31,090 nt of DNA from the UHGV virus genome UHGV-0173755, one strand, 5' to 3'. The notes beneath the pieces were generated by a model. It saw only the letters and a program-made list of their open reading frames with translations, was not told the DNA's origin and did no database searches. Origin of the DNA: a virus. Positions 7,879-22,794 of this stretch are shown here, piece after piece; positions within the stretch are counted from its first letter, which is position 1; each line of letters begins with the position of its first letter. The position numbers and the translations under genes are program-made.

Positions 7879-8022
7879 AGAGATTTCCTGATTTAACGGT
7901 GATATTGAGAGAGGGTTTTAGCCTGCTGGCAGTGCCGGAAAAAGCGGGACAGCGGAAGGGATAAGGCCCATTCCGGGCCACTTTTCAGAATAACGCCAAT
8001 CGCTGTCGCCGCTTTCTCAATA

Positions 8023-13953: not shown

Positions 13954-14030
13954 GTCCTGCTGCTCATCATGGTTTGTGAGCAGTCAGTTTGCGGGAGGTG
14001 CGGGAAAATCTGGGGTTATGCTATTTGAGT
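13954..14030 (-). promoter_or_regulatory. Candidate C-dependent late promoter P_I
   Basis: Upstream of I; contains CCCGCACCT (minus strand, plus 13996-14004), also found upstream of lys. Confidence 0.45.
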
Positions 14031-14149
14031 ACTGGAGAAAGAAAGTGGAATGAAGATAAAACGGGATTCATACACCGTTAAATACCGGTTTAAAAATCCC
14101 GTGGCGCGTTTTAAAAAATCTGTGCGACTGATTTCATGTCTGATTCCGT
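13954..14149. other. G-I intergenic region: expected location of the Mu strong gyrase site (SGS)
   Basis: 196-bp non-coding gap, unusually large for this genome; from memory the SGS sits near the genome centre (~18.1 kb) between G and I, and the coordinate mapping from A start is consistent. Confidence 0.5.
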
Positions 14150-15936: not shown

Positions 15937-17455
15937 CCAGACGCCCCCATATATCGGCAACAAAAATGGCACGGGTCAGCATGTCGATAAGTTCTGCATC
16001 ATCCATCTGCGGATATAATGAAGCGGCTTTGTTCATGGCGGCTTCCGGCCCATCTTTCAGCACAGAAAAAATGACGGGTTTCAGCAGGGGATCAACCGAA
16101 CGCTGCCAGTCTTCCGGTGAGAGGCCCATCCGGTCGATATCATCCTCCTGCGGGATATCTTCAGCGGATAATGCGGCCTCTTTCTGCGGACCGTTATCCA
16201 TGACGACCGGTTGAGCAGTAAACACGGCTTCATCACCGACCGGCTGTGGAATATGGAGTTTTTCCTGTATCCAGGAGACCGGAATACGCATTCCCGCCGC
16301 CAGTTTCGGAATGGCGTCAGACAGTGCCGTAATATCACCCGCTTCACTGGTATCAAACACAATGCCCGGCAGGCGGTTAATATCAATGGTGCTGTCACTG
16401 TTCAGTGCCAGCAGGGGATAAATCAGGTCACGGTTAATACTGCGGGCAAGCTGGCCCACATCCGCGTTACGGATTTCCCGGCGAACCTCATCATGCACTT
16501 CACCCAGCGACCGTGCACCTTTATCGCCAGCCTCTGTGGTCAGGGTGCCGCCCAGAATGGCTTTTGAAATCGCTTTTTCTGCCCAGCCAATCATCGCCAT
16601 AAAGGGGTCTGACTGACCATCTGCGGCGCTCTGAAAATCCAGCGTCATCCCCATCGGAATAATGCCACCGGCACGTCGCCCGATATCCATCACGGCCTGC
16701 ATCAGCGTGGCTTTCTCACGGTTCGTGGAGCCGGTCGGATATTTACCGACGCGCATGGGAAGTCCGTAAATTTCCAGAAACTCTGCAAAATCACGCACGG
16801 AATAGTTTTTAAAAATAAAAGGCCAGATAAGCGTGCGCACAAGGCCATTGGTGCCAACGTACCCGGTGCGGGATTTGGCCCGGTGCATAAACCAGCCGAA
16901 CGGTTGCAGCTCCAGCCCGTGATAAGACGTATCACGCAGACGTAATTCGTTCAGATTATCGGGGTTCGCGCAGAACAGCGCCGGATCGCGATGATGCAGC
17001 GCCACCGGCACGCGCATTTTGCCCAGCCAGCCCCATTCAATCTCCTGCATGGAATAACCCTTGAGAATGGCATCACCGGCATCAAACAGGGCATCTTCAA
17101 ACCACGCCGCATCATGCAGATATTCATTCAGCATGTCGGCGTCTTTTTTCTCCTGTGCGCTGGCATCACGTGCCGGAGCGATGCGCCATTCCAGCGCCTG
17201 AATGGCAAGGCGGCGCTTGCTCAGTTCGGAAAAAAGGTGGGTGTCCTTTTCTTCCATATCAAAGGCCAGGTCAGCCTGTGCGGTCAGATCACCGCGTTCG
17301 GCATCACGCAGCATCTGCGCGGCCCGGTTCGGCGTCACACCACTGGAAGGATGCTCCTGCGTACGCTTCATGACCATTGCCAGCTCATCGCTGCGGGTCT
17401 GCATTTCATCGTCAAAATCAAACGGCTGCCCGGAAATATCCAGAATACGGCCCAT
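15917..17455 (-). CDS. H: Portal protein
   Basis: 512 aa ORF, ATG 17453-17455 overlapping terminase stop; size/position. Confidence 0.85.
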   Translation of the reverse strand: MGRILDISGQPFDFDDEMQTRSDELAMVMKRTQEHPSSGVTPNRAAQMLRDAERGDLTAQADLAFDMEEKDTHLFSELSKRRLAIQALEWRIAPARDASAQEKKDADMLNEYLHDAAWFEDALFDAGDAILKGYSMQEIEWGWLGKMRVPVALHHRDPALFCANPDNLNELRLRDTSYHGLELQPFGWFMHRAKSRTGYVGTNGLVRTLIWPFIFKNYSVRDFAEFLEIYGLPMRVGKYPTGSTNREKATLMQAVMDIGRRAGGIIPMGMTLDFQSAADGQSDPFMAMIGWAEKAISKAILGGTLTTEAGDKGARSLGEVHDEVRREIRNADVGQLARSINRDLIYPLLALNSDSTIDINRLPGIVFDTSEAGDITALSDAIPKLAAGMRIPVSWIQEKLHIPQPVGDEAVFTAQPVVMDNGPQKEAALSAEDIPQEDDIDRMGLSPEDWQRSVDPLLKPVIFSVLKDGPEAAMNKAASLYPQMDDAELIDMLTRAIFVADIWGRLDAAADH

Positions 17456-19110
17456 TACCAGCCCCCTCGTTCAAACTGGTGATAATCATCAAAATCATCG
17501 TTATCAACATCATCACCACGGTGGCGTGGTGGCAGCGCCTGTATGCTGTCCTCGTCGATAACAAAACCATTCATATAAGACGCCCTGACAGCCATACAGA
17601 GCGCCACGGCAAAGTCGCCATGTCGTCGGCCTTTACCACCTTCATCTTTTGTGCGCCCCTTATCAATCTGCGGAATACCTTTGTCCACCTTGATGTGGAG
17701 CAGGTCATCAAGAGTGGTCTGGTGCCGGGCAATCGTGATGTTCTGCGCTTCAAACTCGCCTTTCAGTTTTGGCATCCACTCCTGATACCAGGATGCGGTC
17801 AGATTCACACAGTCGATCATCTCCGGGCCATAAATCAGACGGGCGGCTTCTGCCAGATAACCGCCGTTACCGGTGGCATCAAATGCAGCGCCGGTAAAAC
17901 GGGGCAAACGGGACAGAATGAATAAAAGGATTTGTCGCTGCTGGTCATAGGTCACATTACGCAGCTCCACGCGGAAACATTCGCGTTTGCGTAAGTCAGG
18001 AGTGATGGCAAGCGGCACAAACACCGTCAGGTCGCCACGGCGTGCAAAGTCTTCGCCCAGTACGTGTTTATTGAGCGGCGACAGCGCATCGAGCAACGGG
18101 AGCAGCTCCTGTTCACACCAGTCCTGAACGATGCCGTGGCGCATTTGTGGTGTCAGCGATTCAAAATCGTCCGGGGCTTCAAAACGCAGAATCGGGATAT
18201 CCCGCGCTGGCGTCATGGCGGCTTCAATCAGCACGCGTGACAGATAAGCGCCCCCGGATTTTTTAGGAATGCAGCCGTATTCCTCGTCGGCACTCTCTTT
18301 ATTCGGCGCATTCCGGTACAGGCCATCACGCCAGGCTTTTTCCGCTTCCGGCGACCACGGCTGATTCGTGACGTAACAGATACGTCGGTACAACCCGTCA
18401 GCGATGGCATCATCCAGCGTGATACGGTGAACGCTGTAATCCTTGCGCCCCTCGCGCGCATCCTGAATGTACTGGTTAAACAGGTTATCGACGCCGTTAT
18501 GTGTCGATATGATCCGCACGCGGGCACCCCACATGGTGAGCGCAAAGGCCGCTTTCAGGAGTTCGTCCAGGGCTTCATGAAATGCCGCCTCATCAATCAC
18601 CACGTCCCCCTGCAAACCACGCAGGTTAGACGGACGGCTTGACAGCGCCTGCACCTTAAATCCGCTGTTAGGGAAACGGATCATATAAGTGAGGATTTCT
18701 TCTTTTTTGTCGCTGTCCCAGAAGGTCTGCTCCCAGACGTCAGCCTTTGCCAGTTGGTTAAAGGCACGGGCAAACAGGGCACAGGCGGCGATGTATTCCA
18801 GCGCCATTTCCTGACGGGAACCCACATAAAAGACGTTGCGACCACCGCGACGCTTCGGCTTTGCGGCCGTCATGACATTGCGGCCCGCTTCGGCCCATGT
18901 CAGACCGGTACGACGGGATTTTTCAGCGATGCAAATCTGGCTTTCATCCTCAAACCAGCGCCGCTGATAGCCCAGAAAAACCGGTTCATTGCGGGGCTGT
19001 GCTTCCCCGATATCGGTCACGATATTCACGCCGAGCAGTTCGGCTTCCTCACGCAGGTTGATTTTGCGGGGCGCATGAAGGACTTTAAGTTTGCTTTCTC
19101 TGGTGCTCAC
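17455..19110 (-). CDS. Terminase large subunit (Mu gp28-like)
   Basis: 551 aa ORF; only in-frame start is GTG at 19108-19110 with no obvious SD; size and position before portal. Confidence 0.85.
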   Translation of the reverse strand: MSTRESKLKVLHAPRKINLREEAELLGVNIVTDIGEAQPRNEPVFLGYQRRWFEDESQICIAEKSRRTGLTWAEAGRNVMTAAKPKRRGGRNVFYVGSRQEMALEYIAACALFARAFNQLAKADVWEQTFWDSDKKEEILTYMIRFPNSGFKVQALSSRPSNLRGLQGDVVIDEAAFHEALDELLKAAFALTMWGARVRIISTHNGVDNLFNQYIQDAREGRKDYSVHRITLDDAIADGLYRRICYVTNQPWSPEAEKAWRDGLYRNAPNKESADEEYGCIPKKSGGAYLSRVLIEAAMTPARDIPILRFEAPDDFESLTPQMRHGIVQDWCEQELLPLLDALSPLNKHVLGEDFARRGDLTVFVPLAITPDLRKRECFRVELRNVTYDQQRQILLFILSRLPRFTGAAFDATGNGGYLAEAARLIYGPEMIDCVNLTASWYQEWMPKLKGEFEAQNITIARHQTTLDDLLHIKVDKGIPQIDKGRTKDEGGKGRRHGDFAVALCMAVRASYMNGFVIDEDSIQALPPRHRGDDVDNDDFDDYHQFERGGW

Positions 19111-19166
19111 GGGTGAAAAATCCGGTATAAATTTCCAGGCATTAATCAGTAAAAAAAGAGGTTGTT

Positions 19167-19361
19167 ATGAAAGAAAAACTGACCATTGATCAAAAAATCG
19201 AAATTGCCCGGATAGCCGTGCAAATGTTTGAATCCACCCGGGCAAAAGGCGTTTCACTTGAGATCTCCTGTTCAGGAAAAGCATCAGAGGAAGAAAACAC
19301 ATTTAATGCTTTCTACAAAATTGTTGAAAAAATCGTTATCGGTGAACCTGAGAATAACTGA
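19167..19361 (+). CDS. Small AT-rich hypothetical protein on the opposite strand (64 aa)
   Basis: ATG 19167 with AAGAGG SD 7 nt upstream; TATAAA -10-like at 19126-19131; ~39% GC by eye; 3' end overlaps convergent ORF by 26 nt. Confidence 0.4.
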   Translation: MKEKLTIDQKIEIARIAVQMFESTRAKGVSLEISCSGKASEEENTFNAFYKIVEKIVIGEPENN

Positions 19362-19533
19362 TCACCTGGCCCGCTGTAGCCGGGCCATCCACCAGTTGCA
19401 TAACCAGATACAGGGCCTCGGCCATAATTCGTGGATGGACTTCCGGATCCTCATCAATCTGTTTTTTCACAACGGGCCACAGTGCCATTGCCAGTTCTGT
19501 TGAGGTCTTGTATTTAGTTTTTTCATCCGCCAT
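19336..19533 (-). CDS. Small hypothetical protein (about 65 aa, acidic)
   Basis: ATG at 19531-19533 with GAGG SD overlapping upstream TGA stop (translational coupling); ORF track 67 aa from ATG 19539. Confidence 0.4.
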   Translation of the reverse strand: MADEKTKYKTSTELAMALWPVVKKQIDEDPEVHPRIMAEALYLVMQLVDGPATAGQVISYSQVHR

Positions 19534-19543
19534 TTTCATTTCC

Positions 19544-19714
19544 TCAGGACAAAGTCCTTAGTTGTTTTATGGTCGTATGCCATGAATTGCCTGAAGCCAT
19601 AGCCTGAACAAGCACATCCCGAATCTGGTGTATCAACCGGACATCAGACAATGTTGCAATCCTGAAGGCTTTTTTATGGGCACTGATTAGCTGTGCTTTG
19701 TAATCATTTTTCAT
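19544..19714 (-). CDS. Small hypothetical protein (56 aa, basic)
   Basis: Internal ATG at 19712-19714 preceded by AGGAG SD 7 nt upstream, 10 nt after gp27-like stop; ORF track's 121-aa version overlaps gp27 out of frame. Confidence 0.45.
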   Translation of the reverse strand: MKNDYKAQLISAHKKAFRIATLSDVRLIHQIRDVLVQAMASGNSWHTTIKQLRTLS

Positions 19715-19724
19715 AACGTAACTC

Positions 19725-20300
19725 CTACGCTTTCCCCAGCAGTACATCACGGATGCGCTGCTCCAGTTCTTCGCTGATGCCATCCTGCCCGCGCAGTTCT
19801 TCACTGACGGCGTTTGCCGCTTCTTCTGCGAATGCCTGGCGGATTTCTTTCTCGCGCCGGTGGCTGGACATTGCTGTGGATTCCAGACGCTGTGCCGCCA
19901 GCATGGCATTTTTCAGCAGGTCAATATCCACGTCAGATTCCGGGTTTTCGATTTGCCGCATCATGGCCTTAAAAAGCTGGCTGCGGGCCATTTCCAGAAT
20001 CAGCTTTGTGGTTTCGCCCATTGGCTTGTCGCCAAGCTCTGCGGTCAGTGCTGACGTCATTTCACGCATCTGTCGCAGGTTATGGCCTACCTGCTCGACG
20101 TTCGTCGCGTAACGGTTCAGACCGGAACGGGAGAGTTTCATCTCATCCGGCAGGCCAGCGTCTTCAATCAGTGCGTTAATTTCTTCAAGAATACGGGCCT
20201 GTGGGATCGCCTTATCACGCAGCATTTCATGCAGCGTTTTACGTACGTTTTCCGGCAGTAAATCCACTTTTGAAGCCCGTCCCCGTGTTTTCCTGTCCAT
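19725..20300 (-). CDS. Mu gp27-like protein (putative small terminase/DNA-packaging protein)
   Basis: ORF track 196 aa; ATG at 20298-20300 preceded by AGGAGG SD is the likely start; synteny upstream of large terminase. Confidence 0.65.
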   Translation of the reverse strand: MDRKTRGRASKVDLLPENVRKTLHEMLRDKAIPQARILEEINALIEDAGLPDEMKLSRSGLNRYATNVEQVGHNLRQMREMTSALTAELGDKPMGETTKLILEMARSQLFKAMMRQIENPESDVDIDLLKNAMLAAQRLESTAMSSHRREKEIRQAFAEEAANAVSEELRGQDGISEELEQRIRDVLLGKA

Positions 20301-20311
20301 CACGCCTCCTG

Positions 20312-20602
20312 TCATGCACGGGGACGAGGACGCTTGACACCGGCAACGCGGGCGCGGCCTTCCGCCACATCCTGACCACGGGAGGTCAGCGTTACGACAT
20401 AAAAGCCGCGCAGGTTTTCCACGGTGACCAGTTGCTGCTCTGCCAGCCAGTCAATCTGGCCGCGAACCACATCGCGGGAAACGTTGTGTCCGTATGCATC
20501 CAGACAGTCCTGAAGGATGGATTCGTTTGCTTCGTTATTGCAGTCCATCAGGGAACGCAGGATGACCAGACGACGGTCTTCGGTGAGAATATCGTTAATC
20601 AT
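20312..20602 (-). CDS. Hypothetical protein (Mu gp26-like)
   Basis: 96 aa ORF, ATGA overlap with upstream gene. Confidence 0.5.
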   Translation of the reverse strand: MINDILTEDRRLVILRSLMDCNNEANESILQDCLDAYGHNVSRDVVRGQIDWLAEQQLVTVENLRGFYVVTLTSRGQDVAEGRARVAGVKRPRPRA

Positions 20603-22653: not shown

Positions 22654-22665
22654 ATTTTCCCCCGG

Positions 22666-22785
22666 TTAACAGACAGAAAGATACACCACGGCACTGATGG
22701 TTATCAGAACCACAAGGGCAATCACTTTTATCGCACTCATCAGCGTGGACGGCCCGAAACATTCATCACTGAATTTTCTGTACAT
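22666..22785 (-). CDS. Small hydrophobic peptide (39 aa; candidate Mu gp20-like), below ORF-track threshold
   Basis: My own translation MYRKFSDECFGPSTLMSAIKVIALVVLITISAVVYLSVC; fills gap between membrane protein gene and C. Confidence 0.35.
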   Translation of the reverse strand: MYRKFSDECFGPSTLMSAIKVIALVVLITISAVVYLSVC

Positions 22786-22794
22786 GGTGCCCCT

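Follow-up and report, generated by a model that had tools for sequence, protein, structure and literature searches.

A candidate prophage defence gene pair at the terminase junction

The prophage of the Pseudomonas aeruginosa Mu-like phage JBD26 constitutively makes an 83-amino-acid (aa) protein, Tab, which blocks the tail assembly of related phages via the tape measure protein (Patel et al. 2024, PMC10884400). Its partner, anti-Tab, whose late-strand gene (atab) comes just after the small terminase gene (terS), binds Tab and so shields the phage once it is induced; a single deletion of atab could not be isolated, which the authors read as lethality for the phage, whereas the double deletion is viable (PMC10884400). 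Here we describe a similarly placed locus in UHGV virus genome UHGV-0173755, analysed as a single stretch of 31,090 nucleotides (nt) that we refer to as the window. In this locus, a small gene oriented against the late genes, open reading frame 1 (ORF1; 64 aa; 19167..19361, plus strand), converges with a small late-strand gene, ORF2 (65 aa; 19336..19533, minus strand), between terS and the large terminase gene (terL). ORF1 is almost certainly a real accessory protein gene linked to ORF2. With a probability that we put at roughly 45%, ORF1 may encode a protein that is made by the prophage and inhibits the assembly or packaging of phages, with ORF2 as its late-expressed self-immunity partner, in which case the pair would be functionally a Tab/anti-Tab system made of unrelated proteins.

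The two gene pairs are equivalent in position and layout. The JBD26 record places tab on the opposite strand, with 30 nt between it and the head-to-head terL; atab, which follows terS, converges with tab and overlaps it by 47 nt. In the window, ORF1 lies head-to-head with terL (gp28; 17455..19110, minus strand) across 56 nt and shares a 26-nt convergent 3' overlap with its small late-strand neighbour. In both phages the small opposite-strand gene is accessory among close relatives. The partner gene stands directly after terS in JBD26, in contig L036 and in Escherichia coli SE11, whereas a third gene, ORF3, lies in between in the window. A further contig, L037, carries homologues of ORF1 and ORF2 at the terminase junction, and its terS shares 54% identity with JBD26 gp29 and its terL 64% with gp32; the two kinds of cassette therefore occupy one slot in related phages. 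The systems differ in the size of the opposite-strand protein (83 aa for Tab, 64 aa for ORF1) and in the extra late-strand gene, ORF3, of the window. They also differ in their diversity: a search for Tab homologues from which to build a profile returned only a cluster of 99% identity, so that Tab has essentially no diverged homologues, whereas the ORF1 family consists of many divergent alleles spread across Mu-type and JBD26-type terminases.

The general design has three experimental precedents, namely Tab (PMC10884400), Tai/Ati (PMC11364771, PMC11087260) and TerI (bioRxiv 10.1101/2025.02.27.640495). In the TerI/anti-TerI1/anti-TerI2 (TERi) locus of the Listeria prophage phi10403S, the gene for a 65-aa defence protein runs opposite to the lytic operon that contains it and is transcribed constitutively from its own promoter, while two self-immunity proteins are encoded on the lytic strand (bioRxiv 10.1101/2025.02.27.640495). 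Alternative genes lie behind a conserved promoter region at that locus, to be compared with the conserved spacer and ORF1 leader in the window. However, phi10403S is a Gram-positive siphovirus, its cassette is part of the early lytic module and does not sit at the terminase junction, and the target is TerS; the likeness considered here is one of design. Tai/Ati of phi80 and of phage-inducible chromosomal islands (PICIs), and Tha/Ith of Staphylococcus aureus prophages, similarly place an immune gene opposite to a lytic operon that holds the cognate counter-defence (PMC11364771, PMC11087260). These arrangements have been termed "noncontiguous operons", and their assembly-stage targets mean that self-immunity is needed only after induction (PMC11364771, PMC11087260). 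The proteins, loci and phage types are different ones, and we compare them with ORF1/ORF2 by arrangement. As far as can be told from the genes alone, the window, with ORF1 set opposite to an array of late genes, fits the gene arrangement of a noncontiguous operon. The ORF1 locus also resembles a classical moron in the Juhala/Hendrix definition (as quoted in PMC4378225), having extra DNA between genes that are adjacent in relatives, an atypical base composition and putative expression signals of its own, but differs from one in comprising two or three genes on both strands, in showing no clear terminator and in having a promoter that is itself putative.

ORF1 is a conserved accessory gene

The window is a Mu-like prophage in which nearly all genes lie on the minus strand. 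Genes 27 and 28 of Mu are expressed on one late transcript and are separated by 7 nt, compared with 614 bp in the window. Alignments with Mu, Yersinia phage Tongde, E. coli Z0117 and E. coli RM8082 delimit this AT-rich accessory insert (19111..19724) between the start codon of terL and the stop codon of terS (gp27, Phage_Mu_Gp27/DUF3486; 19725..20315, minus strand); beyond terL follow the portal, MuF and remaining genes. The insert contains ORF1 on the plus strand, together with ORF2 and the 56-aa ORF3 on the late strand. Its GC content is 42.5%, compared with ~54.5% in the flanks (terL 54.8%, terS 54.5%), and falls to 38.5% in ORF1 and 33.9% in the spacer upstream of it (19111-19166); at third codon positions, the GC content of ORF1 is 0.37 versus 0.60. 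The original prediction, which had described ORF1 as more AT-rich than its flanks, was correct on this point (38.5% vs ~54.5%), although the AT-rich tract is the entire insert, of which ORF1 is just one part. It was also right to single out ORF1 as the only credible opposite-strand gene of the late region, the largest internal hole in the minus-strand coding of the window being 19111-19335. Other non-coding gaps in the minus-strand array measure 141-196 nt (13954-14149, which is AT-rich at 44% GC, 7879-8022 and 22654-22794).

ORF1 runs from an ATG at 19167 to a TGA at 19359-19361 and is preceded, as had been predicted, by the Shine-Dalgarno (SD) sequence AAGAGG (19156..19161, plus strand) at a spacing of 5 nt; AGAGG stands at equal spacing before the ATG in all Mu-type lineages. 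Homologues 32-63% identical occupy the equivalent position in other Mu-like prophages, and the gene is conserved at the same place, with a substitution bias towards third codon positions, in at least eight divergent lineages. A word-indexed search identified 65-aa proteins 63% identical to ORF1 in Mixta intestinalis and Apirhabdus apintestini, and a HMMER scan of 1.84 billion representatives yielded 11 matches, all but one of them small (61-80 aa), down to 32% identity. Scans of genomes and metagenomes, in which matches were confirmed against the first sequence only, added few loci; one hit of the DNA pattern scan, L028, was discarded as a chance match inside a capsid gene. Between the window and Mixta, substitutions fall 13, 11 and 33 times on codon positions 1, 2 and 3, and the proportion of changed sites is 0.20 for nonsynonymous (pN) and 0.83 for synonymous (pS) sites. 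The ratio of nonsynonymous to synonymous substitution rates (dN/dS) between Mixta and the metagenomic copy L008 is 0.20. The N-terminus (MKEKLTIDQKIEIA) is near-invariant, and a comparison of ten lineages gives codons 1-17 (MKEKLTIDQKI[EQ]IA..) a pN/pS of 0.12, with synonymous sites saturated; it is therefore the protein that is conserved.

These comparative data already contradict the simplest alternative, that ORF1 is an open frame which arose by chance in AT-rich spacer DNA. Such an origin might be suspected from its length of 64 codons and from the inconsistent starts called by the annotation pipeline PGAP (83 aa in RM8082, 89 aa in P0002). However, substitutions follow the periodicity of codon positions, pN lies far below pS, and even lineages with as little as 32% identity have kept the length, the start and the SD of the gene. 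The longer calls arise because of a 1-nt change in an A-run 5' of the SD, and the conserved form has 64 aa. We therefore give a chance frame next to no credence. It had been proposed at the outset that the gene would be called into question if the ORF were lost in relatives while the overlapping minus-strand frame was kept, and the Tongde lineage, in which ORF2 is kept and ORF1 is gone, is literally such a case. It does not refute the gene, because ORF1 is under purifying selection in many other relatives.

Outside the N-terminus, constraint is uneven. Residues 18-44 are hypervariable (pN/pS 0.80 across ten lineages and ~1 in the L016/L029 pair), and the C-terminal helix, which ends in EPE, is moderately conserved (pN/pS 0.59). 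The AlphaFold (AF2) model is a helical hairpin of residues 7-27 and 41-58, with a predicted local distance difference test (pLDDT) score of 78, and inspection finds no signal peptide or transmembrane (TM) segment. In PHROGs, ORF1, ORF2 and ORF3 match only families of unknown function; the one matched by ORF1, phrog_25148, aligns with residues 1-19 only (19167-19223; E 9e-07), which fits a conserved leader joined to a swapped body. Members of the ORF1 family are currently "hypothetical" or unannotated, and a tblastn search of 50,697 phage records gave no match, so that no sequenced isolate there encodes ORF1. Of two checks put forward with the original prediction, homology searches with the 64-aa product have thus yielded divergent homologues and purifying selection at the protein level, and structure prediction has yielded a hairpin model but no match in Foldseek.

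A -10-like hexamer, TATAAA (19126..19131, plus strand), lies 35 nt 5' of the ORF1 ATG and 16 nt from the terL start codon, and is a candidate promoter element. The original prediction had placed an extended -10-like element at 19124-19132; the sequence GGTATAAAT is indeed present there, but, set in the proper register as CGgTATAAA, it lacks a T both at -15 and at -7 and is not a true extended -10. A -10-like box is found 33-41 nt 5' of the ORF1 ATG in every lineage examined, in the forms TATAAA, TGgTAAGGT, TGaTAATGT/GATAAT and CATAAT. The putative box is overlapped by the leader 5' of the terL start (ACCGGATTTTTCACCC), which has no obvious SD; the start codon itself (19108-19110) is GTG in the window (CAC on the plus strand) and ATG in RM8082, Tongde and Z0117. 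Further downstream on the plus strand, a weak terminator-like stem (AGGACAAAGTCCT) with a T-rich tail is found at 19546-19568, at the ORF2/ORF3 junction; one such site is no more than chance would give, and neither Tongde nor Mixta shows it conserved. Were it to act as a terminator, the ORF1 transcript would extend antisense across the whole of ORF2.

Taken as a claim that ORF1 is a moron, the original prediction holds in so far as the gene is real, accessory, AT-rich and antisense within the late operon, with a -10-like box in all lineages examined. Its further suggestions, that ORF1 may be expressed autonomously in the lysogen and may interfere in antisense with the terminase gene, have precedents in Tab (PMC10884400) and in Tai/Ati and Tha/Ith (PMC11364771, PMC11087260). 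What it overlooked is that ORF1 and ORF2 form a conserved convergent pair, accompanied by ORF3, in an insert placed exactly at the terS-terL junction, and that this layout corresponds to a characterised defence and self-immunity system.

Exchange and uneven presence of the ORF1-ORF2 cassette

Wherever the context of an ORF1 homologue could be retrieved, it was the terS-terL interval of a transposable phage; the homologue runs against the late genes and converges with a gene of the ORF2 family, and in most cases it is head-to-head with terL. The 3' ends of the two genes overlap by 11-29 nt (in the window by 26 nt at 19336-19361, as had been predicted); the sole exception is L018, where the ends are 52 nt apart, terL is disrupted and both genes are shortened. 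This linkage holds in every lineage, including phages whose terL is only 17-23% identical. In L037, for example, terL is 19% identical to that of the window, the ORF1 homologue is 45% identical, and an ORF2 homologue is present.

The pair is also exchanged as a unit. Between the window and L036, terL is 99% identical, while ORF1 and ORF2 are 39% and 45% identical. Sliding identity against L036 and SE11, whose flanks are 90-100% identical to those of the window, locates the swapped block at ~19210..~19730, with sharp boundaries and comprising ORF1 from about codon 15 together with ORF2 and ORF3: in terL, in the spacer and in codons 1-14 of ORF1, DNA identity between the window and L036 is 87-100%; it drops to 17-50% within the block and returns to 90-100% in terS. 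In the comparison of L036 with SE11, the flanks and the N-terminal half of ORF2 are identical and differences are confined to the body of ORF1 and the C-terminal 26 residues of ORF2, which puts the centre of the variable unit where the 3' ends of the two genes abut. This pattern is what cognate co-variation of ORF1 and ORF2 would look like, and the alignments as a whole indicate that the two genes are a swappable pair that travels together.

These observations bear on the reading of ORF1 as a generic lysogenic-conversion moron, which would alter host physiology or exclude phages early, at entry, transposition or replication, with ORF2 and ORF3 as unrelated neighbours. ORF1 is accessory, AT-rich and on the opposite strand, as a moron would be, it resembles no defence family, and ORF2 persists without it and could have a function of its own. 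However, unrelated neighbours would not be expected to remain linked in every lineage, across terminases as diverged as those above, to be exchanged as a single block, or to leave ORF1 alone in no intact phage. The lack of a signal peptide or TM segment further argues against a role in the envelope or in entry. We consider this reading unlikely, though worth keeping in view.

ORF2, a member of PHROG 21398 and the candidate self-immunity partner, is placed here at its second ATG (19533). Its frame is open up to an ATG at 19539; the second ATG is supported by the homologues (64-69 aa), which begin there, by a GAGG 8 nt before it and by the 65-aa PGAP annotation in RM8082. The AlphaFold model of ORF2 has three helices (pLDDT 69). 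ORF3 (19544..19714, minus strand) comes directly after the terS stop, which its SD, AGGAG, overlaps; it forms a family of its own, whose alignment shows a conserved AH.NAFR.A.LS, and it occurs in some lineages only, being absent in L036 and SE11.

The 26-nt overlap codes for two conserved C-terminal motifs, G-E-P-E of ORF1 (GGTGAACCTGAG; 19340-19361) and, on the other strand, S-Q-V of ORF2. Its DNA is nearly invariant across lineages, and the ORF2 motif drifts (SWIRR) in the ORF1-less lineage. A GC-rich hairpin, TGGCCCG-N7-CGGGCCA (19367..19387), starts 6 nt after the ORF1 stop, within the ORF2 codons for G-P-A-T-A-G-Q, and has no U-tract. Its stem is identical in six lineages with a variable loop, L037 has a different and stronger hairpin at this place, and in the ORF1-less Tongde it is degraded. 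Covariation is uninformative here, because the stem is invariant among Mu-type lineages, in which it encodes a conserved Gly-Pro and Ala-Gly. The hairpin could be a 3' structure of the ORF1 mRNA or a by-product of coding.

Conservation of the overlap and the hairpin would also suit a regulatory device acting in cis or through RNA, that is, an antisense brake on ORF2 and terL, or an ORF1 protein that tunes the terminase, with no anti-phage role. ORF1 lies wholly antisense to the transcript that has to extend into terL, the promoter box lies close to the terL start codon, and antisense coordination has a precedent in a noncontiguous operon (PMC11364771). An RNA-only role, however, leaves the hypervariable protein core unexplained, and selection acts on the protein, as seen from the N-terminal pN/pS of 0.12 despite saturated synonymous sites. 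In addition, Mu and most relatives package their DNA without the insert, and a scan of 18900-19900 against Rfam found no family. A purely regulatory function therefore seems to us improbable.

The state of the junction varies between relatives. Mu, D108 and SfMu have nothing between terS and terL; nine complete E. coli genomes, such as Z0117, carry ORF3 and a remnant of ORF2; Yersinia phage Tongde and the E. albertii and E. coli contigs L039-L041 carry ORF3 and ORF2 without ORF1; the window and E. coli RM8082 have all three genes; and L036 and E. coli SE11 have ORF1 and ORF2 of another allele without ORF3. Mu, D108, SfMu and Tongde thus lack ORF1, which is carried by a minority of Mu-like prophages: a Mu-type terL is found in 44 of 5,426 complete E. 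coli genomes, with one window-type and three SE11-type cassettes. The segment missing from Tongde extends from the -10 box to 7 nt past the stop codon of ORF2, and A-rich microhomology is seen where its two sides meet; the Tongde state looks more like a deletion than an insertion. In Z0117EC0036 and eight other complete genomes, the gp27-gp28 spacer measures 274 bp (L004 2428-2701), is unannotated by PGAP, and contains an intact-looking ORF3 and both ends of ORF2 around an internal deletion.

ORF1 was seen without an intact full-length ORF2 only where terL is also broken, namely in L010, where ORF2 is frameshifted, and in L018, where both genes are shortened at the 3' end. The first of these, from Apirhabdus apintestini CP138906.1, was dropped as evidence, as terL and the portal gene of this prophage are also fragmented. 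In this genome (L010 and L012), terL, the portal gene and ORF2 are frameshifted (e.g. G4 to G3), and the metagenomic copies L008 and L009 are intact; the cause is either a prophage in decay or errors of long-read sequencing at homopolymers. Taken across the genomes compared, the occurrence of ORF2 alone or of neither gene, with ORF1 alone not seen in intact phages, matches the logic of an antidote. In L037, the ORF1 homologue is separated from terL by two extra genes on the late strand (2421-2963), coding for proteins of 69 aa and 109 aa, the latter with a hit to the Pfam domain BubE (PF20137), which suggests that the terS-terL junction accumulates additional cargo.

An antidote could also be understood in terms of a toxin-antitoxin or addiction pair, which would stabilise the prophage through an effect on its host. 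The two genes are small and tightly linked, and the Tab authors noted an addiction-like interdependence for pairs of this type (PMC10884400). Type II toxin-antitoxin systems are, however, co-directional bicistronic pairs with a recognisable toxin or antitoxin fold or family; ORF1 and ORF2 are convergent, are not co-transcribed and match no toxin-antitoxin family in Pfam or PADLOC. Furthermore, the putative antidote is encoded in a late operon that is repressed in the lysogen, where a host-toxic ORF1 would therefore be unopposed. We regard an addiction pair as very improbable.

A candidate late-step defence and self-immunity pair

In the model that we infer from this arrangement, ORF1 would act as a defence gene of the Tab type and ORF2 as its antidote. 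In the lysogen, while late transcription is off, ORF1 would be transcribed from its own weak -10-type promoter in the 56-nt spacer beside the terL start. The 64-aa product, a putative helical hairpin, would wait in the cell and block superinfecting related phages late in their cycle, at virion assembly or DNA packaging, with the hypervariable centre of the protein (residues 18-44) setting its target specificity. Upon induction of the prophage, the late transcript would run from terS through ORF3 and ORF2, then antisense through ORF1 and into terL, and would yield ORF2, and perhaps ORF3, to bind and neutralise ORF1. Head-on late transcription might reduce the expression of ORF1 as well.

Several observations weigh against this model. 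The resemblance to the known pair stops at the level of layout: an hhalign comparison of the ORF1 alignment (A5) with Tab (YP_010299225) gives a probability of 0.1, neither hhalign nor BLASTP finds any similarity between the two, ORF2 and ORF3 have no BLASTP alignment with anti-Tab (gp30), and hhalign of alignment A6 with anti-Tab likewise gives a probability of 0.1. Position is itself a weak guide to function. ORF1, ORF2 and ORF3 match nothing meaningful in Pfam, NCBIfam or PADLOC, the ORF1 profile has no match among PDB sequences, and a Foldseek comparison of the ORF1 and ORF2 models with PDB and BFVD returns nothing at E <= 0.001, making the fold searches uninformative. The promoter signal in the window is weak: the TATAAA box has no recognisable -35, and a scan of 18900-19900 for the sigma-70 consensus reports no promoter. 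Nor is a U-tract terminator found 3' of ORF1. The asymmetry between ORF2-only and ORF1-only states rests on few independent lineages, and the state shared by Tongde, P0018 and P0019 may represent a single deletion event. Finally, since the two genes abut at their 3' ends, a single contiguous block of recombination could by itself produce the co-variation between the body of ORF1 and the C-terminus of ORF2.

Nevertheless, it seems reasonable to regard the locus as a candidate for a sequence-unrelated counterpart of the known prophage defence and self-immunity cassettes at the terS-terL junction, and as such for a new anti-phage family in enterobacteria. A fuller version of this proposal, which we advance more tentatively, is that ORF1 and ORF2 constitute a new late-step defence and self-immunity family, unrelated in sequence to those described, of Mu-type and JBD26-type transposable phages in Enterobacterales and beyond. 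The hypervariable ORF1 core and the co-varying C-terminus of ORF2 would then be specificity alleles, the junction would be a conserved hotspot of mutually replacing unrelated cassettes, and phages with ORF2 only, such as Tongde, would carry an orphan counter-defence gene.

If ORF1 is Tab-like, interference with assembly or packaging that comes with built-in self-immunity would reach from one clade of Pseudomonas phages to E. coli, Shigella and other Enterobacterales, where it could be dissected with the genetics of phage Mu. The terS-terL junction would, if this is true, be a predictive hotspot for pairs of defence and counter-defence genes, and the allelic, hypervariable design would offer a natural system in which to study specificity and the arms-race evolution of very small proteins. 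Whatever its function, ORF1 is a clean and conserved case of an antisense-embedded gene within an essential late operon.

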